Shown here one piece after another: positions 20,703-37,787 of a stretch of DNA of 64,000 bases (the first letter of the stretch is position 1; every line of letters begins with the position of its first letter). The position numbers and the translations under genes were made by a program. The stretch spans positions 1,240 to 65,239 of the forward strand of contig DAOUKJ010000048.1 in NCBI GenBank assembly GCA_034421435.1, in the 5' to 3' direction. Below the pieces are notes generated by a model. It was not told the DNA's origin. It searched no databases and saw nothing but the letters and a program-made list of their open reading frames with translations. This DNA is from Dehalococcoidia bacterium. Lineage in GTDB: Bacteria; Chloroflexota; Dehalococcoidia; Lucifugimonadales; UBA2985.

Positions 20703-20736
20703 TGTGGATTACTACAACACCGCAAGGAGAGGAACC

Positions 20737-21681: not shown

Positions 21682-21757
21682 GCGCCGCGCGCGGGCCCCG
21701 CCGATATAGGGCAAATTTGCGCAACTACGCTGCGGATTGGCAGAAAGGATGCCAACT

Positions 21758-21864
21758 GTCATTCTGAACGGAGCGTAGCGGAGTGAAGAATCGCAAGCGG
21801 TCGCAAACAAGGCCACAACACTCTAATGCGAGAGTCCTGGATTCTTCGCTGCGCTCAGAATGAC
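21758..21864. repeat. MITE-like inverted-repeat element
   Basis: The left arm gtcattctgaacggagcgtagcggagtgaagaatc (21758-21792) pairs with the right arm gattcttcgctgcgctcagaatgac (21840-21864). The termini gtcattctga/gaagaatc are perfectly complementary. It lies between trxB and pabB. Confidence 0.7.
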
Positions 21865-21921
21865 CTTGCAGTAGGTGCGTCTCCATAATCTTCGCGAGGT
21901 TTCCGTAGAGGTGGCTCCACA

Positions 21922-23343
21922 TTGAACGCTCAGCCGGTCACAACGCTCGGCACACTGCCGATGGGCCGCTCGTTGCACTCGCTGCCGCATCCGGCGCAGC
22001 TTATGCCGGCGTTCCTCGACATGCCGTTCCCGGTCCTCTTGGACGGCGCCATGCCCGGCGCGCCCGGCAGCCGGTTCTCGTATCTGTCGGCGGACCCGTT
22101 TCTCGTCGTGCGGAGCCGCGGGAATCGCGTATCGCTGCTGCGAAACGGCGTTCTCGAGGAGACCGAGGGCGACCCGTGGACAGTGATGAAGGAGTTTCTG
22201 CAAGACTATCGCGTCGAGCGACGGCCCGGCCTGCCCCCGTTCCAGGGCGGCGTCATCGGCTACTGGGGCTACGATCTGGGCCGCCACCTGGAGCGATTGC
22301 CATCGCAATCGGAGGACGATCTCTGCCTGCCTGAGCTGTACCTGTGCTTCTACGACTGGGTGTTGGCGCACGACGGAGACACAGGCACCTCATACCTCAT
22401 CTCCACCGGCCTGCCCGACGGCTCGGAGCGACGAGCGGAGGAGCGCGAGGCAGAGATTGTGGACAGGCTTGCCGCTGCGCCCGCCGCAGAGCACGCGGAC
22501 GCAGCTGCCTACTGCCCCGCGGAGCTGCGTTCCAACTTCTCGCGCGAGTCGTATATGGCCGTCGTCGAGAGAGTGAAGGCATACCTCGCCGCAGGCGACG
22601 CCTACCAGGTGAACCTGTCGCAGCGGTTCCAGTCGCCCTATGCGGGCGAGTCGTGGCCGCTGTACCTTCGCCTTCGCGAGGCCAACCCAGCGCCATTCGC
22701 CGCGTACCTGGGATTCCCGGAGATGCAGGTGCTGAGCGCGTCGCCGGAAGAGTTCCTTCGGCTGGACGGCGGCCGGGTGAGAGTGCGGCCCATCAAGGGC
22801 ACGCGGCCCGTGGGAGCATCGGACGAAGAGACGGCTGCGCTGGCCGCGGAGCTGCTGGCCAGCGAGAAGGAGCGCGCCGAGAACGTCATGATCGTGGACC
22901 TGATACGCAACGACATCGGTCGCGTCTGCCGCATCGGGTCGGTGGAGGTGCCAAGCCTGTTTGCCGTGGAGCAGCACCCGACGGTGCTGCACCTAGTGTC
23001 CACCGTGACAGGTGAGCTGCGAGAGGGCGCGGACGCCACCGACCTGCTGCGAGCGTGCTTCCCAGGCGGCTCGGTGACAGGCGCTCCCAAGGTGCGCGCC
23101 ATGGAGATCATCGAGGAGCTGGAGCCGGTGCGCCGCGGCGTCTACTGCGGGGCCATAGGCTACGTCTCCTTCAGCGGAGACATGGGCACGAGCATCGCCA
23201 TTCGCACGCTGGTGCTCGCGGGCGGTCAGGCGTACCTGCAGGCGGGCGGCGGCATTGTTGCCGACTCGGAGCCTGCGGCCGAGTACGATGAGACGCTGCA
23301 CAAGGCGAAGGGACTCCGCATGGCGCTGGAGCGCAATGCCTGA
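21922..23343 (+). CDS. pabB: Aminodeoxychorismate synthase component I
   Basis: Chorismate-binding domain with ...FPGGSVTGAPKVRAMEIIEELE...RGVYCGAIGY. The start is TTG 21922 or ATG 21961. Confidence 0.8.
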   Translation: MNAQPVTTLGTLPMGRSLHSLPHPAQLMPAFLDMPFPVLLDGAMPGAPGSRFSYLSADPFLVVRSRGNRVSLLRNGVLEETEGDPWTVMKEFLQDYRVERRPGLPPFQGGVIGYWGYDLGRHLERLPSQSEDDLCLPELYLCFYDWVLAHDGDTGTSYLISTGLPDGSERRAEEREAEIVDRLAAAPAAEHADAAAYCPAELRSNFSRESYMAVVERVKAYLAAGDAYQVNLSQRFQSPYAGESWPLYLRLREANPAPFAAYLGFPEMQVLSASPEEFLRLDGGRVRVRPIKGTRPVGASDEETAALAAELLASEKERAENVMIVDLIRNDIGRVCRIGSVEVPSLFAVEQHPTVLHLVSTVTGELREGADATDLLRACFPGGSVTGAPKVRAMEIIEELEPVRRGVYCGAIGYVSFSGDMGTSIAIRTLVLAGGQAYLQAGGGIVADSEPAAEYDETLHKAKGLRMALERNA

Positions 23344-24208
23344 CGCAGACGCGCTCATGTACGTGAATGGCGAGTTCGTGACCGAGGCCGAGGCAACGAT
23401 CTCCCCGCTCGATCGCGGCTTCACGCTCGCGGATGGCCTGTTCGAGACAATGGTTGCTGCGGGCACCAGGGTGTTCCGCATCGACGACCACCTGGAGCGG
23501 ATGCGCCGCGGCGCCGACCTGCTCCAGCTGCACATGCCGGACGCGGAATTCCTTGAGGCGCTCCTCGAAGAGTGCCTGAGGCGCAGAGGCTTGCCTCTGT
23601 CGGTGGTGAGGCTCACGCTGAGCCGTGGCGTGGACGTCGATCGCGGGCTGAATGCGCCCGCCGCGCTGGACCCCAGCGTGGTCGTTCGAGTCACGCCGTG
23701 GCCCGGACCGCCATCGTCGCTGCCTCCGGGCCGGACGCTCGTTACCTCGACAGTAGCCCGCAACGATCGCTCGCCCCTTTCGAGCGTAAAATCGCTGTCG
23801 TACGTGGACGGCGTCGTGGCGCGGCTGGAGGCGCAGCGCGCCGGCGCAGACGATGCGCTGATGTGCAACACACGCGGCCTCGTGACGGGCGCAACCTCCA
23901 GCAACATATTCGCGGTGATGGGCGGTGTGCTGGTGACGCCGCCCGTGGAGGACGGCGCGCTACCCGGCATATCGAGGCTCACGCTGCTTGAGGAGGCGGA
24001 ACGCCTGGGCATAGCCTGCGAGGAGCGATCGCTTACGACCCAGGACGTGGCCGGTGCAGAAGAGGCGCTGCTATCGAACGTGGTGCAGGGGCCAGTGGCG
24101 GTTGCGTCGGTGGACGGATTGCGGCTGCGTTCGGGCGCGCCGGGCCCGTTGACGCAACAGTTGTGTGATGCGTACTGGTCGCGCGTGCGGCGGGAGGTGG
24201 GGGGATAG
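23336..24208 (+). CDS. pabC: Aminodeoxychorismate lyase (class IV aminotransferase fold)
   Basis: MPDADALMYVNGEFV...SPLDRGFTLADGLFET. ATG 23336 overlaps the pabB stop by 8 nt. Confidence 0.75.
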   Translation: MPDADALMYVNGEFVTEAEATISPLDRGFTLADGLFETMVAAGTRVFRIDDHLERMRRGADLLQLHMPDAEFLEALLEECLRRRGLPLSVVRLTLSRGVDVDRGLNAPAALDPSVVVRVTPWPGPPSSLPPGRTLVTSTVARNDRSPLSSVKSLSYVDGVVARLEAQRAGADDALMCNTRGLVTGATSSNIFAVMGGVLVTPPVEDGALPGISRLTLLEEAERLGIACEERSLTTQDVAGAEEALLSNVVQGPVAVASVDGLRLRSGAPGPLTQQLCDAYWSRVRREVGG

Positions 24209-24226
24209 GGGGGCGGAGGCGTCTAG

Positions 24227-24475
24227 CTACGCCTGCGGGACGGCCGGCGCAGTCAGCATGCCCTCGAGTATGTTCTGCAGCGCCATCGTATGGCTGCAAA
24301 AGCCGCGGATAGCGAAGAAGTCGCAGGTGCACTTGAAGATTCCGTCGCGGTACTCCAGTCGGTGATCGTCGTTCTCGCCCTTAAAGTCGGCCACAAAGCT
24401 CTGGAAGGTTACCCGGCCCTTCTCCTCCGCGTACCTCTTGGCCTTCTCTATCTTGCCGATCACGCTTGAGTACAT
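24227..24475 (-). CDS. Small SWIM-type zinc-finger protein
   Basis: 82 aa. FKCTCDFFAIRGFCSHTMAL fits the SWIM CxCx(n)CxH motif. Confidence 0.6.
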   Translation of the reverse strand: MYSSVIGKIEKAKRYAEEKGRVTFQSFVADFKGENDDHRLEYRDGIFKCTCDFFAIRGFCSHTMALQNILEGMLTAPAVPQA

Positions 24476-24660
24476 AGATGCTCTCCTTTGGCGGCGCAGA
24501 CTTCACCTCAATTCTATGCCCCAGCGCCTTCAGGGTCAATCTCTGGCGCAGGCAATCCTGCGCGAGCATATCGAAGAGCAGCTACACCTGCCGAGCCGAC
24601 CTGTGCTATAATTCACGATACTTCCAGTCGATTGCGTAAGGAGGCAGCCGAGCGACCGTC

Positions 24661-25677
24661 ATGGCCACACTCTACGTAGCATCAGACAGGCCGCGAGCGG
24701 GCAGGACCGCCCTGTGCGTCACCCTGACCCAGCGCCTTCGACAGGACGGCCGGCAGGTGGCCGTGTTCAAGCCGTTCCACTCACCTGCGAACGGCAGCGA
24801 CAGCGACCCCGACGCCGCGATCCTCACGGCCGCTGCGGGCGCGACTGCGCCGGGCGCAGCGTGGCCGATACCCGTGAGCCAGGACGCGACGCCGGACGTG
24901 GCCCGCGCAATGACAGCGTTCGGTGAGGCAACCGCCGGCGCCGACGTTGCCATCGTTGAGGGGCTGAGCGGCTTCGAGGGCGCCACCGGCGAGGCTTCCG
25001 CTCGCCTAGCCAGCGAGATGGACGCCACCGTGATCGCGGTAATCGCATATCGCGAAGGCATCGGTCTGGAGGTGGCCAGGGCCGCCAGGCAGCTCTTCGG
25101 CGATAGGTTGGCCGGCGTCGTCATCAACGGCGTCACAAGGTACAAGTCCCGCGAGGCCAGCGAGCAGCTTGCGCCGCGATTCCAGGCGGCCAACGCGAGG
25201 GTGCTGGCCGCCATCCCGGAGGACAGGAGGCTGCTGGGCGTCACGGCGGGCCAGATCGCCGAACACCTGGGTGGCACCTTCCTCGACTGGGAGGAGAAGC
25301 GCGACAACTTCGTGGAGCACTACCTAATCGGAGGCATGGTGCTGGACTGGGGAGTGCTGTACTTCCAGCGGTTCGAAAACAAGGCCGTCATCGTCAGGGG
25401 AAACCGCCCGGACCTCCAGATGGCTGCGCTAAGGACGCCAACCAGTTGCATTGTGCTAACGGGCGGGCATCCCCCCATCCAGTACGTGAGCTACGAGGCG
25501 GGCGAAGAGGAAGTCCCCCTGATCCAGGTGGAGACGGACACGCTTGAGACCGCCGCCGCGCTGGAGTCGCTACAGGAGCGGACGCAGTTCGACCATCCGC
25601 TGAAGCACGCTCAGTTCCGCGATCTGATGTCTCGCCACGCCGACTGGGACGCGCTGCTCGGCGCGCTGGCCGGCTAG
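24661..25677 (+). CDS. BioD-like P-loop + DRTGG domain protein (Pta N-terminal-like)
   Basis: N-terminal LYVASDRPRAGRTALCVTL...VAVFKPF resembles the non-catalytic N-terminal domains of phosphotransacetylase. No PTA_PTB catalytic domain is present. Confidence 0.55.
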   Translation: MATLYVASDRPRAGRTALCVTLTQRLRQDGRQVAVFKPFHSPANGSDSDPDAAILTAAAGATAPGAAWPIPVSQDATPDVARAMTAFGEATAGADVAIVEGLSGFEGATGEASARLASEMDATVIAVIAYREGIGLEVARAARQLFGDRLAGVVINGVTRYKSREASEQLAPRFQAANARVLAAIPEDRRLLGVTAGQIAEHLGGTFLDWEEKRDNFVEHYLIGGMVLDWGVLYFQRFENKAVIVRGNRPDLQMAALRTPTSCIVLTGGHPPIQYVSYEAGEEEVPLIQVETDTLETAAALESLQERTQFDHPLKHAQFRDLMSRHADWDALLGALAG

Positions 25678-25683
25678 GAACGC

Positions 25684-26124
25684 CTACGGAGCGGGCGGAG
25701 TCGCCGCCGCATCGCCGCTCTGGCTGCCCACCCAGACCTCGCCGCCCTGGAACACCTCTTTCTTCCAGATGGGCACAATCGTCTTGATGCGGTCGATCAT
25801 GTACGCGGACGCCTCCAGGGCCTCCTTGCGATGGGGCGAGCCGATGGCCACCACAAGGCTGATCTCGCCGACGTCCACCCTGCCCACGCGATGAGCGATG
25901 GCCACGTCCTCGATCGCCCACTGCTCCCTGATCTCGTCCACAATCTGCTGCAGCATGTTCTCGGCCATGGGCTGGTAGGCCTCGTACTCTAGGTGGTCCA
26001 CGTCCCGGCCCTCGAACAGGTCGCGGGTGGAGCCCAGGAACGTGACCACGGCGCCGTTGGACGGCTTGCGCACAAGCTCGGTGACCTCCCCTGGATCCAA
26101 GGGGTCGTGCGTGATGCGTATCAT
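25684..26124 (-). CDS. moaE: Molybdopterin synthase catalytic subunit
   Basis: 146 aa. ...GAVVTFLGSTRD...HLEYEAYQPMAE...IAHRVGRVDVGEISLVVAIGSPHRKEA. Confidence 0.85.
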   Translation of the reverse strand: MIRITHDPLDPGEVTELVRKPSNGAVVTFLGSTRDLFEGRDVDHLEYEAYQPMAENMLQQIVDEIREQWAIEDVAIAHRVGRVDVGEISLVVAIGSPHRKEALEASAYMIDRIKTIVPIWKKEVFQGGEVWVGSQSGDAAATPPAP

Positions 26125-26126
26125 CT

Positions 26127-26408
26127 CTAACCTCCGCTTACGGGCGGAATGAATGCGACCTCGTCGCCGTCTTGCAGTGCGGCCTCGTCGCTAACGTACT
26201 CGGAGTTGACGGCTATGAGCACCGGGGCGTCCGCCGGCAGCGATGGGTACTCGCTCCGAAGGCGCTCGAGCAGCTGCGCGGGCGAAGTGCCGTCCGGCAG
26301 CTCCACCTCCGTGTGGGACACGCCGGCCCGCTCTCGATACATGGCGAAGAAGCGCACCGCAACCCTCAAGCCGAGACCTCCAAGCCGCTCATCGATGCCA
26401 GTATACAA
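26127..26408 (-). CDS. moaD: MoaD/ThiS-family sulfur-carrier protein
   Basis: 93 aa ending ...DGDEVAFIPPVSGG (C-terminal Gly-Gly). It lies 2 nt upstream of moaE. Confidence 0.8.
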   Translation of the reverse strand: MYTGIDERLGGLGLRVAVRFFAMYRERAGVSHTEVELPDGTSPAQLLERLRSEYPSLPADAPVLIAVNSEYVSDEAALQDGDEVAFIPPVSGG

Positions 26409-26617
26409 CCCGGCACGGCGGGTGGGGAAGGGCGGGGAGAGATGGATCAGGGCTGCATGACCACCTCTTTATGCACCGAATTGGCCTCTGTATTTGACGT
26501 ACGTTATTGCCATCTATGAGTGCCTTTCCGAACGTAATCTGATACACTGGCAATGCCGAATCGAATAGCAACCCGCTGGCATGTGAACGTATCGGTTGGA
26601 CGGGCCAGGTACCAGAA

Positions 26618-27553
26618 TTGAGCCCTGAAATATACCCTCAGCTTCCTCTACCCGTCACGGATGAAGGCGATTCCTGGCAGGCCACCAGGCCTGCCAGGGC
26701 CGCGCGATCCAAGAAAGCTAACGAATTGGATGGCAGAACGTGGCAGCGATATTCGATTAGCGTTTGGAGTGATATTCGGAAGACCCCAGAGGAACTCCGA
26801 CTAGGTCATCCAGCGATATTTCCTATGCAACTTGTTATGAGGATAATCGAGTGTTTCACATCGAAAGAGGACACCACTGTCCTAGATCCGTTCTGTGGTA
26901 TTGGTTCTACGCCAATTGCAGCTGAACTCCTTGGGAAGCATGGAATTGGCATAGACCTCGAATCTCGATTCTGCAGTATTGCACGTGAGAGGCACCCCTC
27001 AGTCATCTACGAGTTCGACCCGGACGGCACGCATCAAGGTAAGACCCTCCAAGGTGGAGCACGAATCGCGGACGAGTCCGGCACGAGAACTATTCACTGC
27101 GACGACGCGAGAAATCTCCTGAGTCACGTATCCAGAGATTCAATAGATTTGGTGGTCACATCTCCGCCCTATTGGGACATATTGCTCCAAAGCAGGTCCG
27201 CGGATCAGAAGGCAATCCGCAACTACGGGCAGTCTGAGCGAGACATAGGCAGAATCCCCGGATATTTGGAATTCTTGGAAGCGCTTACCGATGTCTTCCA
27301 ACCTACCTATTGCGCGCTTAGGCCAGGGGGATACTGCGTAGTGATCGTTATGGACTTGAGAAAGAAGAATCAATTCTATCCACTGCATGCTGACCTGGCA
27401 CACCAAATGCAGGAGATTGGCTTCATATATGACGACCTAATCATTTGGGATCGCAGACACGAATACAACAACATGAGGCCGCTCGGACATCCCTATAAGT
27501 TCAGAGTCAACAAAGCCCACGAATACGTGTTGATCTTTCAGAAGCCAAGCTAA
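26618..27553 (+). CDS. DNA methyltransferase, N4/N6 (SPPY) type, with motif I upstream of motif IV
   Basis: HPAIFPMQLVMRIIECFTSKEDTTVLDPFCGIGSTPIAA...GIDLE (motifs X/I/II), then DLVVTSPPYWD (motif IV), ending ...NKAHEYVLIFQKP. TTG start with a weak RBS. The gene is lower in G+C than its flanks. Confidence 0.8.
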   Translation: MSPEIYPQLPLPVTDEGDSWQATRPARAARSKKANELDGRTWQRYSISVWSDIRKTPEELRLGHPAIFPMQLVMRIIECFTSKEDTTVLDPFCGIGSTPIAAELLGKHGIGIDLESRFCSIARERHPSVIYEFDPDGTHQGKTLQGGARIADESGTRTIHCDDARNLLSHVSRDSIDLVVTSPPYWDILLQSRSADQKAIRNYGQSERDIGRIPGYLEFLEALTDVFQPTYCALRPGGYCVVIVMDLRKKNQFYPLHADLAHQMQEIGFIYDDLIIWDRRHEYNNMRPLGHPYKFRVNKAHEYVLIFQKPS

Positions 27554-27565
27554 AGTGATGCAAGC

Positions 27566-28498
27566 ATGAGCTACGAGCTGGACTACATGGATGAGGATGT
27601 TGCGTATCTGCTGGGTATGCTTGTTGCACGCGGCGAGGTGATTAGCGGTGAAGGTCTCAATCGCATAATCATTCACTTCCCTAGGGGGCCTCTGTTGGCT
27701 CAAGGCATTAATCTCTCGTTCGATACAGATACTGAGATTCGTCTCGGCATTGAGAAGATTCGTGAACGCGTAGCGGAGCTGCTCGGGGGAGACATTCAGA
27801 CGGTTGTAGGAGATGCCAGCATTGACCTAGTAGTACAGTTCACACGCTCTACCATCGCGTGGCGCGATATTCGAATGCTCCTCAATTACAAGACCAGCTT
27901 CCCCTACTTCCGCATACCTGACCTGTTCTTCGAAGATGGCATCCCGATAGATTGGATCAGAGAGTTCGTGAAAGGCTACTCAGACGTGGCCGGGAATCTG
28001 CGCCCGGCCAATCGGGACCAAGCAGGGAGGTATCGTGTGAGACTCGACACGTTGAATTACCCCTCGAACTGGGAAACACCCGTCAAGCTATGTTTGCTCC
28101 TACAAGACCGTTTGAACGTGCCGGTACCTAGCGTAATCTGGGGCCATCCGAATCTGGGACGAGAATGGCGCGAGCATCAACTCAATGTCTATCCAGAGGA
28201 CTTTCTAAATGTTGGGTTCTACTTCGGATACAAACAGAAAGTACTTGAGGAACTCGCGCGCCACAACAGTTTGAGATTTGCCATCTCCACTAAAGGCTGT
28301 CCTGGTCAGAGGGAGGTGAGAGGAGCCAAGCCCCCGCATGCCGCAGAGGATGACGAGCGGAGATTGCCATCTGAATTGGTAGGCAAGCATTTCAACGGCT
28401 ACTGGCAAATCTGCCGCCAATTGGGATGCCCGAGACGCCCTGATCCCCAAGAGCAGCTAACCCTCGACTTTGAGTCTGACGCAGACGATGAGCAGTGA
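27566..28498 (+). CDS. Hypothetical protein with two degenerate LAGLIDADG-like motifs
   Basis: 310 aa. AYLLGMLVARGE (aa 13-24) and FVKGYSDVAGN (aa 134-144) are spaced about 120 aa apart, as in single-chain LAGLIDADG proteins. Both canonical catalytic Asp positions are non-acidic (R22, A142). It starts 12 nt after the methyltransferase stop. Confidence 0.45.
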   Translation: MSYELDYMDEDVAYLLGMLVARGEVISGEGLNRIIIHFPRGPLLAQGINLSFDTDTEIRLGIEKIRERVAELLGGDIQTVVGDASIDLVVQFTRSTIAWRDIRMLLNYKTSFPYFRIPDLFFEDGIPIDWIREFVKGYSDVAGNLRPANRDQAGRYRVRLDTLNYPSNWETPVKLCLLLQDRLNVPVPSVIWGHPNLGREWREHQLNVYPEDFLNVGFYFGYKQKVLEELARHNSLRFAISTKGCPGQREVRGAKPPHAAEDDERRLPSELVGKHFNGYWQICRQLGCPRRPDPQEQLTLDFESDADDEQ

Positions 28499-28988
28499 AG
28501 TTGCCATGTACGCGCCTGTCGCGGAGTGGTTTCAGGCGTTTTTGAAGGGAAGATTGCCGAGGACTCTTGTTGAGGTTCACGACACCCATGCCATGCCTCT
28601 CAATGGCTACATAAGACGGCTCGGCCTATTTGATTACTTTGACTCAGATTTGTGGGAGACGTTCGATATACGCGTAGACGTCACCGCCTTCCTTTCGGGA
28701 AGAATCAAAGGCGTGGCATTTGTAGAGTGCAAGACTACCGCCATCTCTCTGAGCCATATTTCGCAGCTGTTGGGCTATTCCAGGGTCGCTTTGCCTCAGT
28801 TCTCATATCTCATCTCGAGCAGCGGCATCGGGGGGAATGTCAGATCTATCCTACAGAGCCACGGACGTGTCGACGTCTTGGAGTACGATTGGCCGCGAGG
28901 CAGCGAACCAAAAAGGTTAGTGCTTGCCAAATGGGACTCCATGACAAGGAGCCTCGACGCGACAACTATATTCCCTCCAGGTGCATAG
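28488..28988 (+). CDS. PD-(D/E)xK-like (restriction-endonuclease-fold) protein
   Basis: FDIRVDVTAF...GVAFVECKT gives a D...ExK arrangement. ATG 28488 overlaps the upstream stop (alternative ATG 28506). Confidence 0.5.
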   Translation: MSSEVAMYAPVAEWFQAFLKGRLPRTLVEVHDTHAMPLNGYIRRLGLFDYFDSDLWETFDIRVDVTAFLSGRIKGVAFVECKTTAISLSHISQLLGYSRVALPQFSYLISSSGIGGNVRSILQSHGRVDVLEYDWPRGSEPKRLVLAKWDSMTRSLDATTIFPPGA

Positions 28989-29048
28989 ACTTGAAGTCAT
29001 ACCGCCTCTCGGCGGCACTTCAGGGCCAGCGCGAAAGGCAGTCGCCCC

Positions 29049-29276
29049 TCAAGACACCCTATCAATCGTTACGCCGGGGAGATACAGCCTCACGTCCGCG
29101 CTGAAGCCGGAGGCCTGCTCGAAGTGCGGGAACAGGAACTCCAGACTGCTCCGCTCCCCGCTCACGCTGCGGCCGGAGGCGCCGCCGTAGTACCTGCCCG
29201 CCAAATCGACCAGGGCCGGGTCCAGCTCGCGGGAGCCTTGCGTGTCGCAGTAGGAAACCTCGACGAAGTGAGTCAA
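29049..29276 (-). CDS. Hypothetical protein (possibly a gene remnant)
   Basis: 75-aa ORF in native-composition DNA next to the islet-1 boundary. No recognisable family. Confidence 0.25.
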   Translation of the reverse strand: MTHFVEVSYCDTQGSRELDPALVDLAGRYYGGASGRSVSGERSSLEFLFPHFEQASGFSADVRLYLPGVTIDRVS

Positions 29277-29547: not shown

Positions 29548-29645
29548 TTAAGCCCGCGCGTCTATGGCCTCACGGATGAGGTCCGCGACGGCCGACAAGG
29601 CCGTGGGGCCGAGGTCGCTGCCATCGCGCAGGCGCACGGACACCG
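29548..29645 (-). pseudogene. Displaced duplicate of the thrS 3' end
   Basis: Encodes ...SVRLRDGSDLGPTALSAVADLIREAIDARA*, versus the ThrS C-terminus ...SVRLRDGSDLGPTAVSAVADLIREAIDARA*. Manual alignment of 29551-29645 against 31904-31998 gives 10 mismatches in 95 nt. Confidence 0.85.
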
Positions 29646-29701
29646 AATCTGACTCAGTTACCCAATCTAGAATGCCAAAGGCGAAGCGGTGAGTGGCAAA
29701 C

Positions 29702-31150
29702 CTAGCTGAAAAGCGACCGCTGCCTTGCAGGTTGGTATGATCGAAACACGCAACTTTGGCCCGAGTCAAACGCAGTCTTTGCGAGCAACATAGTACCACC
29801 GCCGCGACGCTTGATTTGCTGTGAACTCACGCTTCTGACCCATCCCAGACCAAATAATGGATGACTTACGCGCTGACCCTGATACACCTGGCGGTTTACA
29901 GAAAGCCGAACTACATCTCGCGTCTCAAACTGGTCCTGATTGTGATCAACATATAGGTCGTTGCCAGATGCCTCTCGGAGCGCAATTCTTGTTAACGCTT
30001 CCGCAACACGGAGAAAGTAACCATAATCCTGCATCGCGTTTGCCCATCTGTCGGGAATGGCCATCTGCCCCCTCCGCGCGCAAATCAGCCCACCTACCAT
30101 CGCAGCTATTGTGTCTGTGTCAGAACCGAGCATATTTACAGCCCTCACTATTGCCTTCTCGTAATTCCCCCCATGCCGGAGAAATACGCCAATGGCTGCG
30201 GCTACTGTTGCTGTTCCCGACCCCTTGGTCTTCGGATCCAGACACCCCATCTCCAGGTACAAATCTCCTAGGGAAGTTTCTAGCTTCGAAGCCTTGGACA
30301 GCAGGAACACCATTTCATTCTTGGTCTCCTCAAACAAGATGGCGAATGAACTCCCGGAATGTTGCTGCCACGACCGCATCCATTCTTGTATTGAGTCGGG
30401 AAGTGTCTCAAGACTTAGCCCAGTCACATAATCTTCTAGAGCGCCAAGGAACTCTTCGCTGCCTGATGATTCATCTCTGATAAGGGTGTGGAGGGCTTTT
30501 GCGTACACCAAGGCGCCTAGAATGGCCCGCGGGTGACCGTGGGTTACGATGGAGTTTTCCCATACAGCGCATGTCAACATAGTCTCGTCTCCTCTGTTGG
30601 CAAGTGCCAACGGAGAAACCCTCATCGCTGCGCCGTTTGCGCCAGCATCCATATAGCTGGTTTTCCTGCCTTTGCTCTCAAATGAGAAAAAATTGCTGTT
30701 CCAAGCAACCCTCTTTCTCGAGGCAGCCTTGGCGGCACGCGTGACGGTCGCACCAGCACCTCTAGCATAGGCAAGCCAATTCGGGAGTTCACGCTTGGCG
30801 AAGTGTTGCCCGTCAAAGGAACCATCTGGTCGTAAGGACCGCGCAGTGCTCAATGTGAGTTGCGTATCGTCCGAATAGTCCCCTGGTTGGATGTAGTCGA
30901 TGTAGGCGTTGAATCTGCCCCCGGTCAACTTCTCCCAAGGGATAAAGTCTCGAACCTCTTCAGCACCATGAAGTCTCTCGAGTTGAGCCTTAGTCTTGAT
31001 GAACTCCGTAGGCCAACCTAGGGCATCCGCGACTGCCGAGCCGAGCAAGACTCCCGAGAATCTGTCCCTTAGGTCATCGCAGGGCTCAAACTCATCAATA
31101 AGCTGATGACCTTCGTTCCACGCATTGGTCTCCAGCATGGGCCTCACCAC
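29702..31150 (-). CDS. ADP-ribosylglycohydrolase (ARH/DraG family) with an ~100-aa C-terminal extension
   Basis: DRFSGVLLGSAVADALGWPTEF, GDYSDDTQLTL and LGSDTDTIAAMVGGLICARRGQMAIPDRW are the ARH signatures. The C-terminal GQRVSHPLFGLGWV resembles a PcrA/UvrD Tudor-like motif. The start is GTG 31150 or ATG 31138 (preceded by GGTGAGG). Confidence 0.85.
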   Translation of the reverse strand: MVRPMLETNAWNEGHQLIDEFEPCDDLRDRFSGVLLGSAVADALGWPTEFIKTKAQLERLHGAEEVRDFIPWEKLTGGRFNAYIDYIQPGDYSDDTQLTLSTARSLRPDGSFDGQHFAKRELPNWLAYARGAGATVTRAAKAASRKRVAWNSNFFSFESKGRKTSYMDAGANGAAMRVSPLALANRGDETMLTCAVWENSIVTHGHPRAILGALVYAKALHTLIRDESSGSEEFLGALEDYVTGLSLETLPDSIQEWMRSWQQHSGSSFAILFEETKNEMVFLLSKASKLETSLGDLYLEMGCLDPKTKGSGTATVAAAIGVFLRHGGNYEKAIVRAVNMLGSDTDTIAAMVGGLICARRGQMAIPDRWANAMQDYGYFLRVAEALTRIALREASGNDLYVDHNQDQFETRDVVRLSVNRQVYQGQRVSHPLFGLGWVRSVSSQQIKRRGGGTMLLAKTAFDSGQSCVFRSYQPARQRSLFS

Positions 31151-31164
31151 CTTCCCTACATTTG

Positions 31165-31809
31165 CTAATACCTGCCTCTAAACTGGTTGGCACCAACCAA
31201 CAACCTATAGGACTCAGTAACGGCTCTTCCATCAGGTAAATTGACTCCCCAGAGTTCGTTCAGTGCGTAGTCTTTCGACTGCTCACTGTGAAAGAACATT
31301 AGGGGAATAAAGTATGCCAAGTCTATGCTGTGGGGAATCAAGATTTCACCCGGAGCTGGCGAAGGAAAATCGGTTGTTGAGTTTTGGAACATTGAATCGA
31401 ACACCCTAGCAGTATTGTTGCGGAGGAGGCTAGAAAGTGTAATTTCGTTATGGGAACTCCAGTCTGGTGAGAACAAGGTGCCATCACGCCAAAGGAGGCT
31501 TGGTTGAAGTTGAAGCAATACCTTGCTGTCAGAATCGTGTCTAGCCATGCCCCAAGGAGAGGCGAGCGAACAACAGATGTAATCCTTCAACTCTTCATCT
31601 TTCCCAGCCGCGCCCCAACTGCTCATGTCATAGGCAATTCCTGCCTGATCCATCTTGGCTCTACTCAACAAACCTCTCTTCGAGAAGATTGACTTCAGGT
31701 GATCTACACGACTCAAGTGCCAAAGTCGCTGAATCCGACGCCTCCGAACGATCGATTCAATGGCATCTGCGTCCGCGGAGCGTTCAAATGACCGATCTGC
31801 ATTCTCCAT
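31165..31809 (-). CDS. DarT-like (DUF4433-like) ADP-ribosyltransferase
   Basis: 214 aa. LWHLSRVDHLKSIFSKRGLLS, KDYICCSLASPWGM and GEILIPHSIDL parallel DarT (I)YH(I)TH..NL.SIL..G.L, DYVPFYF and AEFLV. This is motif-level recognition only. Confidence 0.55.
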   Translation of the reverse strand: MENADRSFERSADADAIESIVRRRRIQRLWHLSRVDHLKSIFSKRGLLSRAKMDQAGIAYDMSSWGAAGKDEELKDYICCSLASPWGMARHDSDSKVLLQLQPSLLWRDGTLFSPDWSSHNEITLSSLLRNNTARVFDSMFQNSTTDFPSPAPGEILIPHSIDLAYFIPLMFFHSEQSKDYALNELWGVNLPDGRAVTESYRLLVGANQFRGRY

Positions 31810-31900
31810 TCGAGAGTATTGTACAGGAAGCTGTCAATTGACTGGAGTTTCTCCTGACGCAATCCCCAATAGGATGAAATGCCTGAACTAACTCTACTCC

Positions 31901-33658
31901 TCACGCCCGCGCGTCTATGGCCTCGCGGATGAGGTCCGCCACGGCGGACACTGCCGTGGGGCCGAGGTCGCTGCCGTCTCGCAGGCGCACCGACGCCGTC
32001 TCCGCCTCCGCCTCCTTGTCGCCCACCACCAGCATGTACGGCACCTTCTGGAGCTGCGCGTGGCGTATCTTGGCGTTCATCCGCTCCGAGCGGTCGTCCA
32101 CGTCAACGCGGATGTTGTGCTGCTTGAGCCTCTGCGATACTTCTTGGGCGTAGTCGATGTGCCTGTCTGCGATCGGTATGACGACCGCCTGCACGGGCGC
32201 AAGCCACACCGGGAATGCCCCGGCGTAGTGCTCGATCAGCACGCCGAAGAACCGCTCCATCGACCCCAGCAGGGCTCTATGCACCATGTAGGGACGGTGC
32301 TCGCGGCCGTCCTCGCCCACGTAGGTCACGTCGAACCGCTCAGGCAGGTTGAAGTCGAACTGGATGGTGGTGCACTGCCACTCGCGGCCCAGTGCGTCCA
32401 CCATCTTCACGTCGATCTTGGGGCCGTAGAACACGGCGCCGCCCTCGTCCTCCTCGTAGGGTAGACCGCGGGAGCGGATCACGTCTCGCAGAGCCTCCGT
32501 CGCCATGTTCCAGTCCTCCAGGGAGCCGGCGAACTTGCCGCCCTCGTTGCGGGTGGACAGATAGACGTTGAACTCCTGGAACCCGAAGGCGTTCAGGAAG
32601 AATCGCATGAAGTCGACGCAGCCTTCAAGCTCGTCTCGAACCTGGTCAGGGCGGCAGAAGATGTGGGCGTCGTCCTGGGTGAATCCTCGGACGCGCAGGA
32701 GGCCGTGGAGCACACCGGAGCGCTCGTAGCGGTACACGGTGCCCAGCTCGCCCAGTCGGATGGGAAGCTCACGGTAGCTCCTGAGCGAGGTCTTGTATAT
32801 CTGGATGTGGAACGGGCAGTTCATGGGCTTCACGTAGTAGTCCTGGCCGTCCACGTCCATGGGCGAGTACATGTTCTCGGCGTAGAAGTCCAGGTGGCCG
32901 CTGGTTTCCCACAGCGTGGACTTGCCGATGTGAGGCGAATAGACCAGCTCGTAGCCGGCGCGGTAGTGCTCCCGGCGCCAGAAGTCCTCGATGACGCTGC
33001 GTATGCGGCCGCCCTTGGGGTGCCAGAACGCCAGCCCAGGCCCGTAGTCCTCGTGGAACGACAGCAGGTCGAGCTCGCGGCCCAGCCTGCGATGATCGCG
33101 GCGCTGCGCCTCCTCCAGGCGCGCCAGGTGGTCGTCGAGTGCGTCTGCGGTCTCGAATGCGGTGCCGTAGATGCGCTGCAGCATCGGGCGATGCTCGTCG
33201 CCGCGCCAGTATGCGCCGGCCACGTTCAGCAGCCTGTAGGCGCTGATCTTGCCCGTGGACGCCACGTGAGGCCCCTGGCACAGGTCGGCAAACTCACCGT
33301 GGCGGTAGATGCTGATAGTCTCATCCTCAGGCAGGTCTTCGATGATCTCCAGCTTGAAGGGCTGCTCCGCGAACATGCGAATGGCGTCCTCGCGGCTCAG
33401 CTCCTCGCGCACGAACGGCATGTCGCTGTCGATGGTCTGCCGGATGTGGTCATTGATGGCCTCCAAGTCCTCCGGGGTGAAGGGCCTGGAAACCTGGAAG
33501 TCGTAGTAGAAGCCGTCGGCGGTCGGCGGGCCGATGCCCAGCTTGGCGTCCGGGAACAGGCGCGTCACGGCGTCGGCCATGACGTGCGAGGCGGAGTGGC
33601 GCATCCGCTCGCGGAGTGCGTCTACCTCTGTATCTGCGTGTGCGTGCTGAATGCTCAT
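31901..33658 (-). CDS. thrS: Threonine--tRNA ligase (no N-terminal TGS domain)
   Basis: 585 aa beginning at the editing-domain HSASHVMADA...FYYDF region, followed by the class II core and anticodon-binding domain. Confidence 0.9.
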   Translation of the reverse strand: MSIQHAHADTEVDALRERMRHSASHVMADAVTRLFPDAKLGIGPPTADGFYYDFQVSRPFTPEDLEAINDHIRQTIDSDMPFVREELSREDAIRMFAEQPFKLEIIEDLPEDETISIYRHGEFADLCQGPHVASTGKISAYRLLNVAGAYWRGDEHRPMLQRIYGTAFETADALDDHLARLEEAQRRDHRRLGRELDLLSFHEDYGPGLAFWHPKGGRIRSVIEDFWRREHYRAGYELVYSPHIGKSTLWETSGHLDFYAENMYSPMDVDGQDYYVKPMNCPFHIQIYKTSLRSYRELPIRLGELGTVYRYERSGVLHGLLRVRGFTQDDAHIFCRPDQVRDELEGCVDFMRFFLNAFGFQEFNVYLSTRNEGGKFAGSLEDWNMATEALRDVIRSRGLPYEEDEGGAVFYGPKIDVKMVDALGREWQCTTIQFDFNLPERFDVTYVGEDGREHRPYMVHRALLGSMERFFGVLIEHYAGAFPVWLAPVQAVVIPIADRHIDYAQEVSQRLKQHNIRVDVDDRSERMNAKIRHAQLQKVPYMLVVGDKEAEAETASVRLRDGSDLGPTAVSAVADLIREAIDARA

Positions 33659-33800
33659 GACCGTGAAATACCCTTGGGTAGTCTACAGCCTGCCACATGG
33701 GCGGGCAAGTGGCGGCGGGAGGGGCCGAGTAGAGAGTAGCCGTTGGCTCGGTTCGCTTCTCTCGCACCGCTCCCGCTCGAACGCCTGCTATAATCGCGCC

Positions 33801-34493
33801 GTGGACATCCAATCGCTGCACCCGTGGGACGTCGACCAGCGCACCGCCGCAAGCATACAGCGTGACCTGGCAACCCGCGTCATCGTGCGTGACGAGGTCG
33901 CTACCGAGCCACGCTTTGTGGCCGGCGTGGACCTGTCGCCGCCGGACGCATCCGGCGAGGCCACGGCCGCCGCGGTGCTCCTGGAGCTGCCCGCGCTAAG
34001 TGTCGTCGAGGTGCGGCTGCACCGGGGCGGGCCCGCGTTCCCGTATGTGCCCGGCCTGCTCTCCTTCCGCGAGGCGCCTCTGGTTCTCGGCGCGCTGGCG
34101 ATGCTGTCCACAACGCCGGACGCAATACTCGTGGACGGCCACGGCATGGCGCATCCGCGCCGGTTCGGCCTGGCCTGCCACATCGGGCTGCTCACCGAGA
34201 CTGCCACCATCGGCTGCGCCAAGTCCATCCTCAGCGGCAGGCCGGACGGCAGCCCGGAGCCTGAGCGTGGGTCGCACGTGCCTCTCGTGGACCGCGGCGA
34301 GGTGGTGGGCGCGGCCGTTCGAACCCGGACCAACGTAAGCCCCATCTACGTGTCAGTGGGACACCGCACCAGCCTCGAGCGGGCCGTGGAGTTGACTCTC
34401 GCCTGCTGCAAGGGTTATCGTATGCCGGAACCCACGCGGCTGGCGCATCTCGCCGCCGCGGGACGCATTGAATCGGTGGGCGCTGGCACATAG
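33801..34493 (+). CDS. nfi: Endonuclease V
   Basis: FVAGVDLS...YVPGLLSFREAP...VDGHGMAHPRRFGLACHIG...GCAKS. I chose GTG 33801, 6 nt after TGCTATAAT, which would make the transcript leaderless. Confidence 0.8.
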   Translation: MDIQSLHPWDVDQRTAASIQRDLATRVIVRDEVATEPRFVAGVDLSPPDASGEATAAAVLLELPALSVVEVRLHRGGPAFPYVPGLLSFREAPLVLGALAMLSTTPDAILVDGHGMAHPRRFGLACHIGLLTETATIGCAKSILSGRPDGSPEPERGSHVPLVDRGEVVGAAVRTRTNVSPIYVSVGHRTSLERAVELTLACCKGYRMPEPTRLAHLAAAGRIESVGAGT

Positions 34494-34540
34494 GAGCCGC
34501 GTCCGGCTCGAACACGAACGACGGAGGAAGACGACCAACC

Positions 34541-35645: not shown

Positions 35646-35773
35646 CGCCCGCGGCCATCTGTCGGTGACCATAGAGAAGCCTTCTTGATGCCTCCGACCT
35701 TCCCGCGCAGAGGGGAAAGGGACTCTGGATTGCGGCTTTCGCCGCAACGACGGTCGGGAGGCGGCCGCCAAAC

Positions 35774-35814
35774 CCTCTTCCCCCTTGATGGGGGAAGATT
35801 GAGATGGGGGTGAA
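35774..35814. repeat. 41-bp repeat with 8-bp-stem hairpin (copy 2)
   Basis: Identical to 10497-10537. It lies 9 nt beyond the stop of the minus-strand MFS gene, a terminator-like position. Confidence 0.8.
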
Positions 35815-35822
35815 ATGGCTTC

Positions 35823-37181: not shown

Positions 37182-37182
37182 C

Positions 37183-37782: not shown

Positions 37783-37787
37783 AGCGC

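Follow-up and report, generated by a model that had tools for sequence, protein, structure and literature searches.

What is the function of three tightly linked genes that stand within a lower-G+C block of a bacterial chromosome, and do their products work together? The block lies in a window of 64,000 nt (the whole stretch of DNA that was analyzed) from a Dehalococcoidia bacterium (contig DAOUKJ010000048.1, positions 1,240 to 65,239, forward strand), and all coordinates given here are those of the window. The first-pass annotation of this DNA read the genes as an SPPY-type DNA methyltransferase, a protein with two LAGLIDADG-like motifs but without the catalytic acidic residues, and a nuclease with the D...ExK arrangement of the restriction-endonuclease fold. 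Together these were thought to form a modular restriction-modification (R-M)-like system that differs from the standard layouts. Fold comparison of the second and third proteins and a search for the same three-gene order in other genomes were proposed there as checks.

Organization and acquisition of the cassette

The cassette contains three intact open reading frames on the plus strand. Gene 1 (26618–27553) begins with a TTG start codon and encodes a methyltransferase of 311 aa (35.6 kDa). Gene 2 (27566–28498) encodes a predicted LAGLIDADG-fold pseudo-nuclease of 310 aa (35.7 kDa, pI 5.2), and gene 3 (28488–28988), which begins with ATG and has an alternative TTG start at 28470, encodes a small predicted PD-(D/E)xK nuclease of 166 aa (18.6 kDa). 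The tight linkage described in the first-pass annotation can be read directly from the sequence: genes 1 and 2 are separated by 12 nt (27554–27565), and genes 2 and 3 share an 11-nt overlap, ATGAGCAGTGA, in which the ATG of gene 3 overlaps the stop codon of gene 2.

The reported drop in G+C is equally evident, with a value of 0.518 for positions 26460–28990 compared to 0.657 in the left flank and 0.651 in the right flank, making the cassette a 2.5-kb block of 52% G+C in a 65% G+C genome. The G+C content falls within the moaD-proximal spacer at the left junction (26409–26617), the presumed promoter region, and is back at the host level in the right junction (28989–29048). The next gene after the cassette is orf75 (29049–29276, minus strand). 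In related genomes moaD and orf75 are adjacent and the cassette is absent. Based on the low G+C content and this empty site in relatives, the cassette is horizontally acquired. No direct or inverted repeats were found flanking the cassette, no tRNA was found in the window, and searches around gene 2 found no intron RNA family and no intron or intein context. Neither a sigma-70-like promoter on the plus strand nor an intrinsic terminator was detected.

Gene 1 encodes a DNA methyltransferase

The assignment of gene 1 is borne out by matches to PF01555 (E 1e-30) and to the PADLOC model MTase_II (E 4e-43), as well as by the presence of motif X (HPAIFP, aa 64–69), motif I (DPFCGIGST, aa 90–98), and motif IV (SPPY, aa 182–185). 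The AdoMet-binding and catalytic motifs are therefore intact, as is characteristic of the methyltransferase of a Type II R-M system. Residue conservation and co-evolution were computed on 64 complete loci, and both SPPY and FxGxG are invariant in the 64 gene 1 homologues. The best PDB match of gene 1 is TTHA0409 (2zie, E 1.3e-28). Residues 30–130 of gene 1 align to residues 187–281 of TTHA0409 while residues 154–310 align to residues 19–176, suggesting that the domain order in gene 1 is circularly permuted compared to this beta-class enzyme. Because of its SPPY motif, gene 1 is predicted to methylate cytosine, probably yielding N4-methylcytosine, with N6-methyladenine as the alternative product.

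Gene 3 encodes a small PD-(D/E)xK nuclease

The AlphaFold model of gene 3 has a pLDDT of 95 and contains, in order, a helix (residues 5–22), three strands (26–32, 65–71, and 75–82), a second helix (88–101), and a final strand (106–110). This is the alpha-beta-beta-beta-alpha-beta order of the PD-(D/E)xK core, with an Asp (D64) at the start of the second strand and the (D/E)xK motif (E80, K82) in the third. The motifs DIRVD (aa 60–64) and FVECK (aa 78–82) supply D64 and E80-x-K82, and they are followed by Q93-x3-Y97. All five side chains (D64, E80, K82, Q93, and Y97) are invariant in 64 of 64 homologues, and the conservation of the catalytic residues of genes 1 and 3 across the 64 loci points to purifying selection.

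Sequence profiles of the gene 2 and gene 3 families returned nothing significant from Pfam, NCBIfam, PADLOC, or all PDB sequences, and only fold comparison was informative. For gene 3 it returned the expected nuclease-fold homology. The leading Foldseek matches in the PDB are NucS/EndoMS (top), BstEII, EcoRI, Can2, EcoT38I, MspJI, and BsaWI, with weak E-values of 0.002–0.03. Matches in BFVD include MmcB-like proteins (top), proteins labeled "Restriction endonuclease", and RecB-family nucleases, with probabilities of up to 1.00. Additionally, weak matches to the Pfam families HSDR_N_2 and HSDR_N were obtained for seven members of the gene 3 family. As in Type II systems, the predicted endonuclease has an intact active site and is encoded by a separate, adjacent gene, and the cassette contains no ATPase or helicase.

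Gene 2 is predicted to adopt a LAGLIDADG fold that lacks the catalytic acids

Gene 2 has no match in Pfam, NCBIfam, or PADLOC, and its fold was assigned from an AlphaFold model (pLDDT 89, pTM 0.89). The Foldseek search against the PDB returned homing endonucleases, WhiA, and a maturase (top E 2.6e-6), including 72 matches with E ≤ 1e-3; among the matches listed, 50 of 50 are LAGLIDADG proteins at a probability of 1.00. The third-best match is the WhiA structure 3hyi. This result provides the DNA-binding-fold homology that had been anticipated for gene 2. Each of the two LAGLIDADG-like motifs (YLLGMLVARG, aa 14–23, and KGYSDVAGN, aa 136–144) opens one of the two domains of the model. The penultimate positions of these motifs, which hold the catalytic acids in active enzymes, are occupied by R22 and A142. 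Across the 64 loci, position 22 is Arg in 63 and Lys in one and is never acidic, while position 142 is Ala in 52, Ser in six, Asn in three, and otherwise Gly, Thr, or Cys, but never Asp or Glu. The same two positions hold Asn or Arg, and Thr or Ala, in distant gene 2 clades. Gene 2 is thus predicted to be a LAGLIDADG pseudo-enzyme from which both catalytic acids have been lost, consistent with the first reading of its motifs.

The electrostatic properties of the model also bear on its role. The N-terminal domain and its beta-hairpins are net negative (family mean −3.7), and only the C-terminal half looks competent for DNA binding in the model. Since gene 2 is acidic overall and its N-terminal domain is negative, the canonical, full-saddle binding of roughly 20 bp observed for homing endonucleases is unlikely; instead of reading the sequence, gene 2 might act as a protein scaffold. 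The tail of the model (aa 241–296) is largely coil, with many Cys and His residues. A zinc site formed by C245, C283, and C288 of this tail was considered as a universal feature and rejected; the Firmicutes/phage clade lacks these cysteines, and such a site is therefore not family-wide. No WhiA or HTH match to Pfam was obtained in 46 gene 2 members.

Distribution and co-evolution of the three genes

The order methyltransferase–gene 2–gene 3 on one strand was found in approximately 80 species-level loci from more than 10 phyla, with hosts that include Chloroflexota, Poribacteria, Armatimonadota, Planctomycetota, Acidobacteriota, and Asgard archaea. The junctions between the genes are mostly between −44 and +30 nt. 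The order fails only at contig ends, such that genes 2 and 3 are syntenic with a methyltransferase in practically all genomes with a contig that allows this to be seen, and the proposed search for conserved synteny was in this sense answered clearly. Because the same gene order recurs in approximately 80 independent genomes, the association is far beyond chance. The surrounding neighborhoods are unrelated to each other and are often mobile or defense-rich; neighbors include an integrase with AlpA, HepT/MNT, another methyltransferase with an HNH nuclease, a transposase, and GmrSD. The three genes also co-evolve (Mantel r 0.85–0.89, p = 0.001). One protein from the clade of the window itself, P0108 (491 aa), has the appearance of a gene 2–gene 3 fusion. 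It was set aside as a probable frameshift or assembly error because its junction reads like an out-of-frame stretch.

More distant homologues of gene 2 (26–29% identity) are found in plasmids of Lactiplantibacillus plantarum and in gut phages, and each is followed by a homologue of gene 3 (hhalign probability 99.3–99.6%). These pairs come after a 700-aa fusion of an EcoRI-type m6A methyltransferase to a C5 (m5C) methyltransferase that is unrelated to gene 1. Across clades, the partners of the gene 2/gene 3 module comprise beta-class N4/N6 enzymes, the fused EcoRI-type m6A and C5 enzyme, Dam-like enzymes, and Eco57I-type enzymes, and the module itself is found on plasmids, phages, and integrative elements. 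Such swapping of methyltransferases between clades is a hallmark of R-M systems. Hosts of the proposed class range from Asgard archaea to Acinetobacter prophages and gut phages.

Genes 2 and 3 also occur as single-chain fusions, which form nineteen clusters at 50% identity or at least 205 clusters at 90% identity. The fusions are 539–557 aa in length and consist of a gene 2 domain, a linker of approximately 60 aa, and a gene 3 domain that retains ExK...QxxxY. In the four loci that were examined, two methyltransferases are found beside the fusion in every case, and an HTH gene is nearby in three. In one locus, the small ORF that follows the fused enzyme is a paralogue of gene 3 (hhalign 97%) whose ExK is degenerate, while the corresponding ORF in the Acinetobacter locus has no detectable relation to gene 3. 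No methyltransferase–gene 2 fusions were found, and a methyltransferase domain is absent from the 905–1299-aa proteins that contain a gene 2 domain.

Proposed function and alternatives

Taken together, the cassette is probably a horizontally acquired R-M system in which the restriction enzyme has two subunits and is built in a new way. The basis for this reading is the folds of the proteins, the conservation of their motifs, strict synteny, co-evolution, methyltransferase swapping, natural fusions, and the empty site; the reading is strengthened by the swapping, the gene 2–gene 3 fusions, and the R-M accessories around the fusions. In the proposed mechanism, gene 1 would methylate a short motif in host DNA, probably at N4 of cytosine. 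Gene 2 would serve as a non-catalytic targeting or scaffold subunit with the fold of a monomeric homing endonuclease, contacting DNA probably mainly through a conserved, basic hairpin of its C-terminal domain and its basic tail. Gene 3, which is translationally coupled to gene 2, would bind gene 2 and function as the catalytic subunit, a minimal nuclease domain with an HsdR-like D...ExK...QxxxY site, and would cleave DNA that lacks the methyl mark, either at the site or close to it. Two copies of gene 3 would probably make the two strand cuts, as in FokI. For the split form present in the window, we infer the complex itself, the sequence-reading subunit, the motif, the cleavage geometry, and the defense phenotype. 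Analysis of k-mer under-representation in 0.89 Mb of carrier loci, carried out with no non-carrier control, revealed only generic avoidance of short palindromes (GATC, GGCC, CTAG, GGCGCC). A point against the R-M model, and one that needs explaining, is that only one methyltransferase accompanies a recognition subunit that is presumably asymmetric and monomeric.

Several other readings share part of this evidence. The cassette could be an ordinary Type IIP pair in which gene 1 protects the site of a self-reading, homodimeric gene 3, leaving gene 2 as an accessory such as a WhiA-like regulator or a modulator of restriction. The nuclease core of gene 3 is complete, and its size matches that of the smallest Type II enzymes that work on their own (PvuII is 157 aa), so that it could recognize DNA alone. 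The charge pattern of gene 2 and its substitution of the catalytic acids by Arg and a small residue also mirror the transcription factor WhiA (Taylor and Stoddard review, PMC3384342). However, gene 2 is never missing, is conserved as much as gene 3 or more (mean pairwise identity 0.46 vs 0.40), is translationally coupled to gene 3, and is covalently fused to it in more than 200 clusters. Known controller proteins are HTH proteins of approximately 80–100 aa, whereas gene 2 contains no HTH domain and, in the fusion clade, 3/4 loci have an HTH gene of this kind besides. Together these observations make the Type IIP arrangement unlikely. A selfish homing element, with genes 2 and 3 as a rare-cutting nuclease that spreads the cassette and a methyltransferase that only protects the carrier, would account for the descent of the gene 2 fold from homing endonucleases, the intergenic insertion at a site that is empty in relatives, and the homologues on phages and small plasmids. 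Yet the flanking genes differ at every locus examined, and there is therefore no common homing site. Homing is rendered quite improbable by this result together with the lack of flanking repeats and of an intron or intein context, the half of the gene 2 saddle that looks unfit for a long target, and the accompanying methyltransferases, which are of short-motif families and, as in R-M systems, change from clade to clade.

The position of gene 2, always between methyltransferase and nuclease, raises the prospect of a Type I-like logic in which gene 2 would steer both enzymes to one site as their common specificity subunit. The co-evolution of genes 1 and 2 (r 0.85) and the compactness of gene 1 (311 aa), which has no large, separate target-recognition domain, are compatible with such an arrangement. 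Nevertheless, gene 1 spans all of TTHA0409, a beta-class enzyme of the same size (297 aa) that is assumed to be self-sufficient, and elsewhere the gene 2/gene 3 module pairs with EcoRI-type m6A plus C5, Dam-like, and Eco57I-type enzymes, unrelated families whose members carry their own recognition elements. Given this end-to-end alignment with an enzyme of similar size and the unrelated methyltransferases that pair with genes 2 and 3, a scheme in which gene 1 has no target-recognition domain and relies on gene 2 was rejected as the main model; the absence of methyltransferase–gene 2 fusions also counts against Type I-like logic, for which the chance appears slim. The top fold matches of gene 3 (NucS/EndoMS in the PDB and MmcB-like repair proteins in BFVD) could instead suggest a methylation-linked repair or nicking module, similar to Vsr or NucS/EndoMS, in which genes 2 and 3 process mismatches or lesions at methylated sites. 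These matches reflect only the shared nuclease core, and the partner methyltransferases include N4/N6 enzymes, the products of which create no T:G mismatches. Furthermore, the loci are carried by phages, plasmids, and integrative elements and have other defense genes as neighbors, and no other restriction gene that could own the methyltransferase is adjacent to it in the window or in loci L002 and L003. A role in repair is consequently very improbable. The R-M reading, with the gene assignments upheld by profile, structure prediction, and fold search, is the one supported by the swapping, fusions, and accessories described above, in line with the modular system that was first suggested.

Comparison with known systems

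The claim that the layout is non-standard stands in part. The cassette is not a Type I system, as it contains no HsdS, HsdM, or HsdR motor (SF2 helicase/translocase), although gene 3 resembles the nuclease domain of Type I HsdR in its D...ExK...QxxxY motif set and its family's weak HSDR_N/HSDR_N_2 matches. It would not, however, be placed outside Type II; the appropriate label would be an unusual heteromeric Type II system (IIT/IIS-like). Close parallels are the Class III heterodimeric Type IIS/IIT enzymes BtsI, BsrDI, and BspD6I/BstNBI, which contain a large recognition subunit and a PD-(D/E)xK subunit of approximately 18 kDa that is inactive alone (PMC3017599, PMC1950550). The subunits of BtsI (38 and 18 kDa) are nearly the same size as the products of genes 2 and 3 (35.7 and 18.6 kDa), and the active sites of the small subunits are alike (BtsI-A: D65/E78/K80; BsrDI-A: D67/E82/K84; gene 3: D64/E80/K82). 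The cassette family also shares with these Class III systems its adjacent subunit genes and, in related clades, two methyltransferases or a fused double methyltransferase. In contrast to gene 2, the large subunits of BtsI, BsrDI, and BspD6I have a working PD-type site and nick DNA alone. The recognition domain of Nt.BspD6I is FokI-like, whereas gene 2 is predicted to be a LAGLIDADG protein with neither a nuclease site nor a PD-(D/E)xK domain. No match of genes 2 and 3 to PADLOC REase models or to NCBIfam models, including REBASE-derived ones, was obtained, and BtsI and BsrDI were compared by published description only. The fusion relatives follow the plan of FokI-type Type IIS enzymes, with a targeting domain, a linker, and a one-site PD-(D/E)xK domain. 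The DNA-binding domain of FokI consists of three winged-helix subdomains; the targeting domain of the cassette family is instead a LAGLIDADG fold, and in the window the modules are separate polypeptides.

Among LAGLIDADG proteins, gene 2 has the fold of I-DmoI, I-SceI, I-AniI, and PI-SceI, and each of its domains begins with the packing motif found in these proteins. Unlike these homing endonucleases, gene 2 lacks both metal-binding acids, with the nuclease role predicted to reside on another fold, and it is always the middle gene of an operon in unrelated neighborhoods with no fixed homing site. WhiA is also similar, as the part of the review used here describes a monomeric, two-domain fold with an acidic N-terminal domain, a more basic C-terminal domain, and loss of the catalytic acids (Arg and Gly in T. 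maritima; Arg and Ala/Gly/Ser in gene 2), and indicates that the LAGLIDADG domain of WhiA may not bind DNA (PMC3384342). In contrast to WhiA, which is a conserved housekeeping gene, gene 2 resides in a methyltransferase/nuclease operon on mobile DNA. The design proposed for genes 2 and 3, in which a dead LAGLIDADG protein targets and a PD-(D/E)xK domain cuts, is also that of laboratory chimeras in which inactive I-SceI is joined to FokI or PvuII nuclease modules and the target is 18 bp long (PMC2685105, PMC3258161). Unlike these chimeras, the gene 2/gene 3 family is natural, widespread, and paired with methyltransferases.

Implications

Catalytic folds known among restriction enzymes include PD-(D/E)xK, HNH, GIY-YIG, phospholipase-D, and half-pipe. 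The Taylor and Stoddard review, in the part considered here, ties homing-endonuclease families to host proteins that include restriction enzymes, and for the LAGLIDADG fold that part describes only WhiA as a host relative (PMC3384342). No natural LAGLIDADG-based restriction system was found in the literature searched, and neither gene 2 nor gene 3 is represented by a model in PADLOC-DB 2.0. The chances are about even that the cassette is the founding example of a large, unrecognized R-M class with split and fused forms and hundreds of protein clusters, in which a dead LAGLIDADG scaffold targets an HsdR-like nuclease domain. If genes 2 and 3 do form a restriction enzyme, LAGLIDADG would join the homing-endonuclease folds for which that part of the review gives a restriction-enzyme relative, providing the first natural link between this fold and restriction enzymes and a case in which a homing-endonuclease scaffold was recycled as a non-catalytic module. 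The family would be a natural counterpart of the engineered meganuclease–FokI chimeras, and would combine targeting and cleavage in a compact design, built on the scaffold that has been explored most in meganuclease engineering. Defense-system finders, which currently overlook this family, would have one more to include, and hundreds of "hypothetical proteins" carried by plasmids, phages, and defense islands across many phyla would gain names and a testable function.

Cassette organization and inheritance

Three plus-strand genes make up the cassette: gene 1 (26618–27553; 311 aa, TTG start), gene 2 (27566–28498; 310 aa) and gene 3 (28488–28988; 166 aa, or 172 aa from an alternative TTG at 28470). 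In the window sequence a 12-nt gap divides gene 1 from gene 2, and the ATG of gene 3 lies within the final codons of gene 2 (ATGAGCAGTGA), resulting in an 11-nt overlap. The G+C content of the cassette (26460–28990) is 0.518, compared to 0.657 (20000–26400) and 0.651 (32000–40000) on its flanks. The first-pass annotation had described both this arrangement and the low-G+C stretch, and both are present.

The same annotation proposed looking for the three-gene order in other genomes, and the order is indeed conserved. A scan of one genome per species yielded 101 confirmed loci, 80 of which were retrieved for analysis. ORF and HMM searches place a gene 1 homologue directly upstream and a gene 3 homologue directly downstream of gene 2, on the same strand, in essentially all 80, with junctions mostly between -44 and +30 nt. 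The exceptions are contigs ending within the cassette and a degraded copy (locus L061); at three archaeal loci gene 3 is adjacent but convergent. The hosts span Chloroflexota (Dehalococcoidia, Anaerolineae, Chloroflexia), Poribacteria, Armatimonadota, Planctomycetota, Acidobacteriota, Gemmatimonadota, Binatia, Myxococcota, Latescibacterota, Ignavibacteria, Hydrothermota, Promethearchaeota and Jordarchaeia. Furthermore, pairwise identities in the 64 complete loci are strongly correlated between genes 1 and 2 and between genes 2 and 3 (Mantel r 0.85 and 0.89, respectively; p = 0.001), and the three genes are one inherited unit. The neighbourhoods are unrelated between loci and often mobile or defence-like; one contains an element with integrase, AlpA and primase that also carries an AAA_15 ATPase and a further REase-like gene, while others contain a HepT/MNT pair, a transposase, or a C5 methyltransferase with an HNH nuclease.

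Gene 1: a permuted methyltransferase

The first-pass assignment of gene 1 as an SPPY-type DNA methyltransferase is borne out by its match to PF01555 (N6_N4_Mtase; E 1e-30, as two pieces) and by the SPPY and FxGxG motifs, which are invariant in 64/64 cassette homologues. Many PADLOC Type II methyltransferase models also match (best E 3.7e-43). The SPPY motif is typical of N4-cytosine methyltransferases, and both m4C and m6A enzymes are found among the solved relatives. The nearest of these is TTHA0409 from Thermus thermophilus (2zie; E 1.3e-28), in which residues 19–176 align to gene 1 residues 154–310 (containing SPPY) and residues 187–281 align to gene 1 residues 30–130 (containing HPAxFP and FxGxG). 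Because the two segments align in swapped order, gene 1 is a full-length circular permutation of this same-sized beta-class enzyme.

The public gene call on the source contig is only 238 aa, starting 73 codons downstream at Met74 (window 26618–26836; locus L086, 1272–1988). Since the shorter start loses the conserved HPAIFP and the 2zie-aligned region from residue 30, the 311-aa TTG-start ORF is the better gene model; it also agrees in length with its homologues (290–313 aa).

Gene 2: a LAGLIDADG-fold pseudo-nuclease

Gene 2 has no match in Pfam, NCBIfam or PADLOC, its family profile has none among PDB sequences, and just 1/46 family members gives a weak LAGLIDADG_3 match. The AlphaFold model built from the 46-sequence alignment is nevertheless confident (pLDDT 89.1, pTM 0.89). 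The fold search advised in the first-pass annotation returned 72 PDB matches at E <= 1e-3 with Foldseek, and the best 50 of these 72 are all LAGLIDADG proteins at probability 1.00. Matches include the intein endonucleases TliVMA and PI-SceI, WhiA, the bI3 maturase, I-DmoI, I-AniI, I-SceI, I-Tsp061I and I-OnuI variants. The two LAGLIDADG-like motifs recognized earlier correspond to the LAGLIDADG helices of the predicted fold (YLLGMLVARG, aa 14–23; KGYSDVAGN, aa 136–144).

The Taylor and Stoddard review indicates that the penultimate motif position binds metal in active enzymes, and that T. maritima WhiA carries Arg and Gly at the two catalytic positions (PMC3384342). The equivalent positions in gene 2 are R22 (R in 63 and K in 1 of 64 loci) and A142 (A in 52, S in 6, N in 3, and G, T and C in 1 each). 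Neither is ever D or E in the 64 loci or in distant clades, and the acids are also absent from the one fused gene 2–gene 3 protein read in sequence. The lack of catalytic acids described previously is confirmed, and gene 2 is predicted to be a LAGLIDADG-fold protein that is catalytically dead.

Charge and conservation are unevenly distributed. The N-terminal domain, which may be a protein interface, is acidic: its net charge averages -3.7 over the family and its hairpins are negative. In the C-terminal domain the beta1–beta2 hairpin is basic (+3), and this hairpin and beta3–beta4 are the most conserved parts of the protein (0.80–0.82); the tail (aa 241–296) is also basic (+5.5). Residues kept even at 26–30% identity include G193-H194-P195, E203, R157, K223, K255, E261 and H275. 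If gene 2 reads DNA, it would probably do so with the C-terminal half-saddle and tail, a mode of reading more in keeping with a short target of the restriction type than with a homing site of 20 bp.

A C-terminal gene 2-like LAGLIDADG pseudo-nuclease domain was also observed in seven cluster representatives of 905–1299 aa (P0219, P0222, P0225, P0229, P0261, P0311 and P0317). Arg occupies the first catalytic position in 3/3 of those read, and the 600–1000 residues preceding the domain have no Pfam match.

Gene 3: a PD-(D/E)xK nuclease

The gene 3 family gives sub-threshold matches to the restriction-fold families HSDR_N_2 (5 members, best E 0.0016), HSDR_N (2 members), NA-iREase1 and pPIWI_RE_REase, and none to PDB sequences. 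The AlphaFold model is very confident (pLDDT 95.4) and has the canonical alpha-beta-beta-beta-alpha-beta order, with D64 opening the second strand and E80-x-K82 within the third. Foldseek, also advised for this gene, returned PD-(D/E)xK nucleases as the leading PDB matches, with weak E values of 0.02–0.1: NucS/EndoMS (probability 0.96), BstEII, EcoRI, Can2, EcoT38I, MspJI and BsaWI. The best matches among viral models, at probability up to 1.00, are MmcB-like proteins, several annotated 'Restriction endonuclease' and a RecB-family nuclease. D64, E80, K82, Q93 and Y97 are invariant in 64/64 loci; the D...ExK arrangement noted from the sequence lies in a predicted PD-(D/E)xK fold. A QxxxY element after ExK is the pattern of HsdR/RecB-type nuclease domains, in agreement with the HSDR_N matches.

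Partner swapping and single-chain forms

Two small Lactiplantibacillus plantarum plasmids and two gut phages carry relatives of gene 2 with 26–29% identity (tblastn). In all four cases the next gene overlaps and encodes 165–168 aa; 2/2 of those checked are gene 3 homologues (hhalign probability 99.3% and 99.6%) that keep D, ExK and QxxxY. Upstream is a ~700-aa methyltransferase combining EcoRI-type N6-adenine (E ~1e-118) and C5-cytosine (E ~1e-72) domains. A double methyltransferase that combines two chemistries is usually required at asymmetric (Type IIS-like) sites. In the Anaeroplasmataceae phage (locus L088, 4202–6295), a GmrSD-family Type IV restriction enzyme directly follows the gene 2/gene 3-type module, and together they make a small defence cluster at one end of the phage genome.

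When 1.84 billion cluster representatives were searched with a profile, 342 relatives of gene 2 emerged, and 19 of these clusters among the matches listed are 539–557 aa long. These chains consist of the gene 2 domain, ~60 residues and then a domain matching gene 3 (HMM E 1e-13 to 1e-30; hhalign probability 99.0–99.3%), with ExK...QxxxY found in 17/19 by simple pattern search. Seeding with one of the fusions extended this to at least 205 90%-identity fusion clusters, all 'hypothetical', whose named sources include Nanoarchaeota, Patescibacteria/Campbellbacteria, Firestonebacteria, Empedobacter and Acinetobacter baumannii. At 4/4 loci examined an overlapping 158–168-aa ORF follows the fusion; after it come two methyltransferases that are convergent, one of PF01555 and one Dam-like (D12) or Eco57I-type, and a small HTH gene lies nearby in 3/4. 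The Acinetobacter locus adjoins phage lysis genes and ardA. Within the set L090–L094, the extra small ORF of L094 is a gene 3 paralogue (hhalign 97%), possibly an inactive dimerisation partner since its ExK is replaced (FLNRE); that of the Acinetobacter prophage locus has no recognisable relation to gene 3. The combination of fusion, methyltransferase-partner swapping, paired methyltransferases and HTH genes is the standard signature of a Type II restriction-modification module.

Genomic surroundings

Metagenomic contigs with MoaE 72–73% identical keep the order memb64-orf75-moaD-moaE-DRTGG gene. The variable moaD–orf75 spot (window 26409–29048) was compared with loci L096, L098 and L100: orf75 and moaD lie only 0.4–0.7 kb apart, with no cassette, in two relatives, and a third has unrelated genes there, a response regulator and a GlcG-like gene. 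In the window the distance is 2.64 kb, filled by the low-G+C cassette, which points to its acquisition in this genome. Neither flanking repeats nor a tRNA or integrase turned up at the cassette. An 82-aa minus-strand ORF (24227–24475) resembles a SWIM-type zinc finger in its CxC...CxH pattern (FKCTCDFFAIRGFCSH) and is conserved at the same position in related genomes (49–76% identity). In relatives thrS neighbours this SWIM-like gene across moaE, on its other side, indicating that the region has also been rearranged.

A second low-G+C island (29552–32008; 0.515) lies next to the cassette, bounded by 104-nt direct repeats (29552–29655 and 31905–32008; 88% identity). Because the repeat duplicates the thrS 3' end, insertion of this island into the thrS 3' end is suggested. 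Its minus-strand genes (29702–31150 and 31165–31809) encode a 482-aa ADP-ribosylglycohydrolase (PF03747, E 1.5e-55) and, next to it, a DarT-family ADP-ribosyltransferase (PF14487, E 1.7e-6). The usual partner of DarT is the macrodomain protein DarG, so the pair may combine a DarT toxin and an antidote of the ARH type. Across the 64-kb window a single Rfam family exceeds the threshold, a minus-strand TPP riboswitch (RF00059, 13677–13789; 60.9 bits, E 1.7e-9), and there are no tRNA genes.

Proposed mechanism and relation to known systems

The restriction-modification-like interpretation of the first-pass annotation is supported by the predicted folds, the intact motifs, inheritance as one unit and the gene 2–gene 3 fusions; taken as a whole, a restriction-modification or heteromeric nuclease system is a fairly probable reading. 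Genes 2 and 3 would form the restriction enzyme. Gene 2 could target the enzyme by means of the C-terminal half-saddle and the basic tail, and/or serve as a platform that activates gene 3; the chance that it is the subunit that reads sequence is put at about even. Gene 3 would cut unmethylated DNA and gene 1 would protect the host. Since each gene 3 chain has one active site, a double-strand break would need two copies, comparable to FokI dimerisation; otherwise the enzyme would nick.

BtsI, BsrDI and BspD6I, which are Class III heterodimeric Type IIS/IIT enzymes, come nearest to gene 2/gene 3 as functional analogues; each pairs a large recognition subunit with a small PD-(D/E)xK subunit that has no activity by itself (PMC3017599, PMC1950550). 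The subunit masses are closely similar (38 + 18 kDa for BtsI, 35.7 + 18.6 kDa for gene 2/gene 3), as are the catalytic residues (D65/E78/K80 in BtsI-A, D67/E82/K84 in BsrDI-A, D64/E80/K82 in gene 3). In contrast to gene 2, a LAGLIDADG pseudo-enzyme, the large subunits of these enzymes have a functional nuclease site and nick by themselves, and Nt.BspD6I, the one of known structure, recognises DNA via a FokI-like domain. The fold of gene 2 is closest to homing endonucleases, while its substitutions and charge pattern are closest to WhiA, whose HTH domain it lacks. No literature was found on natural restriction-modification or defence systems built on the LAGLIDADG fold, and the passages considered from the Taylor and Stoddard review discuss the fold only in relation to WhiA (PMC3384342). 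Inactive I-SceI has been joined to FokI or PvuII in engineered proteins (PMC2685105, PMC3258161).

The cassette is a probable restriction-modification system whose restriction enzyme would have a new architecture. Relatives in the 90%-identity protein collection (153 of gene 2 and 48 of gene 3, several on common contigs) are all without a protein name, and it represents a sizeable, widely distributed, unannotated family.
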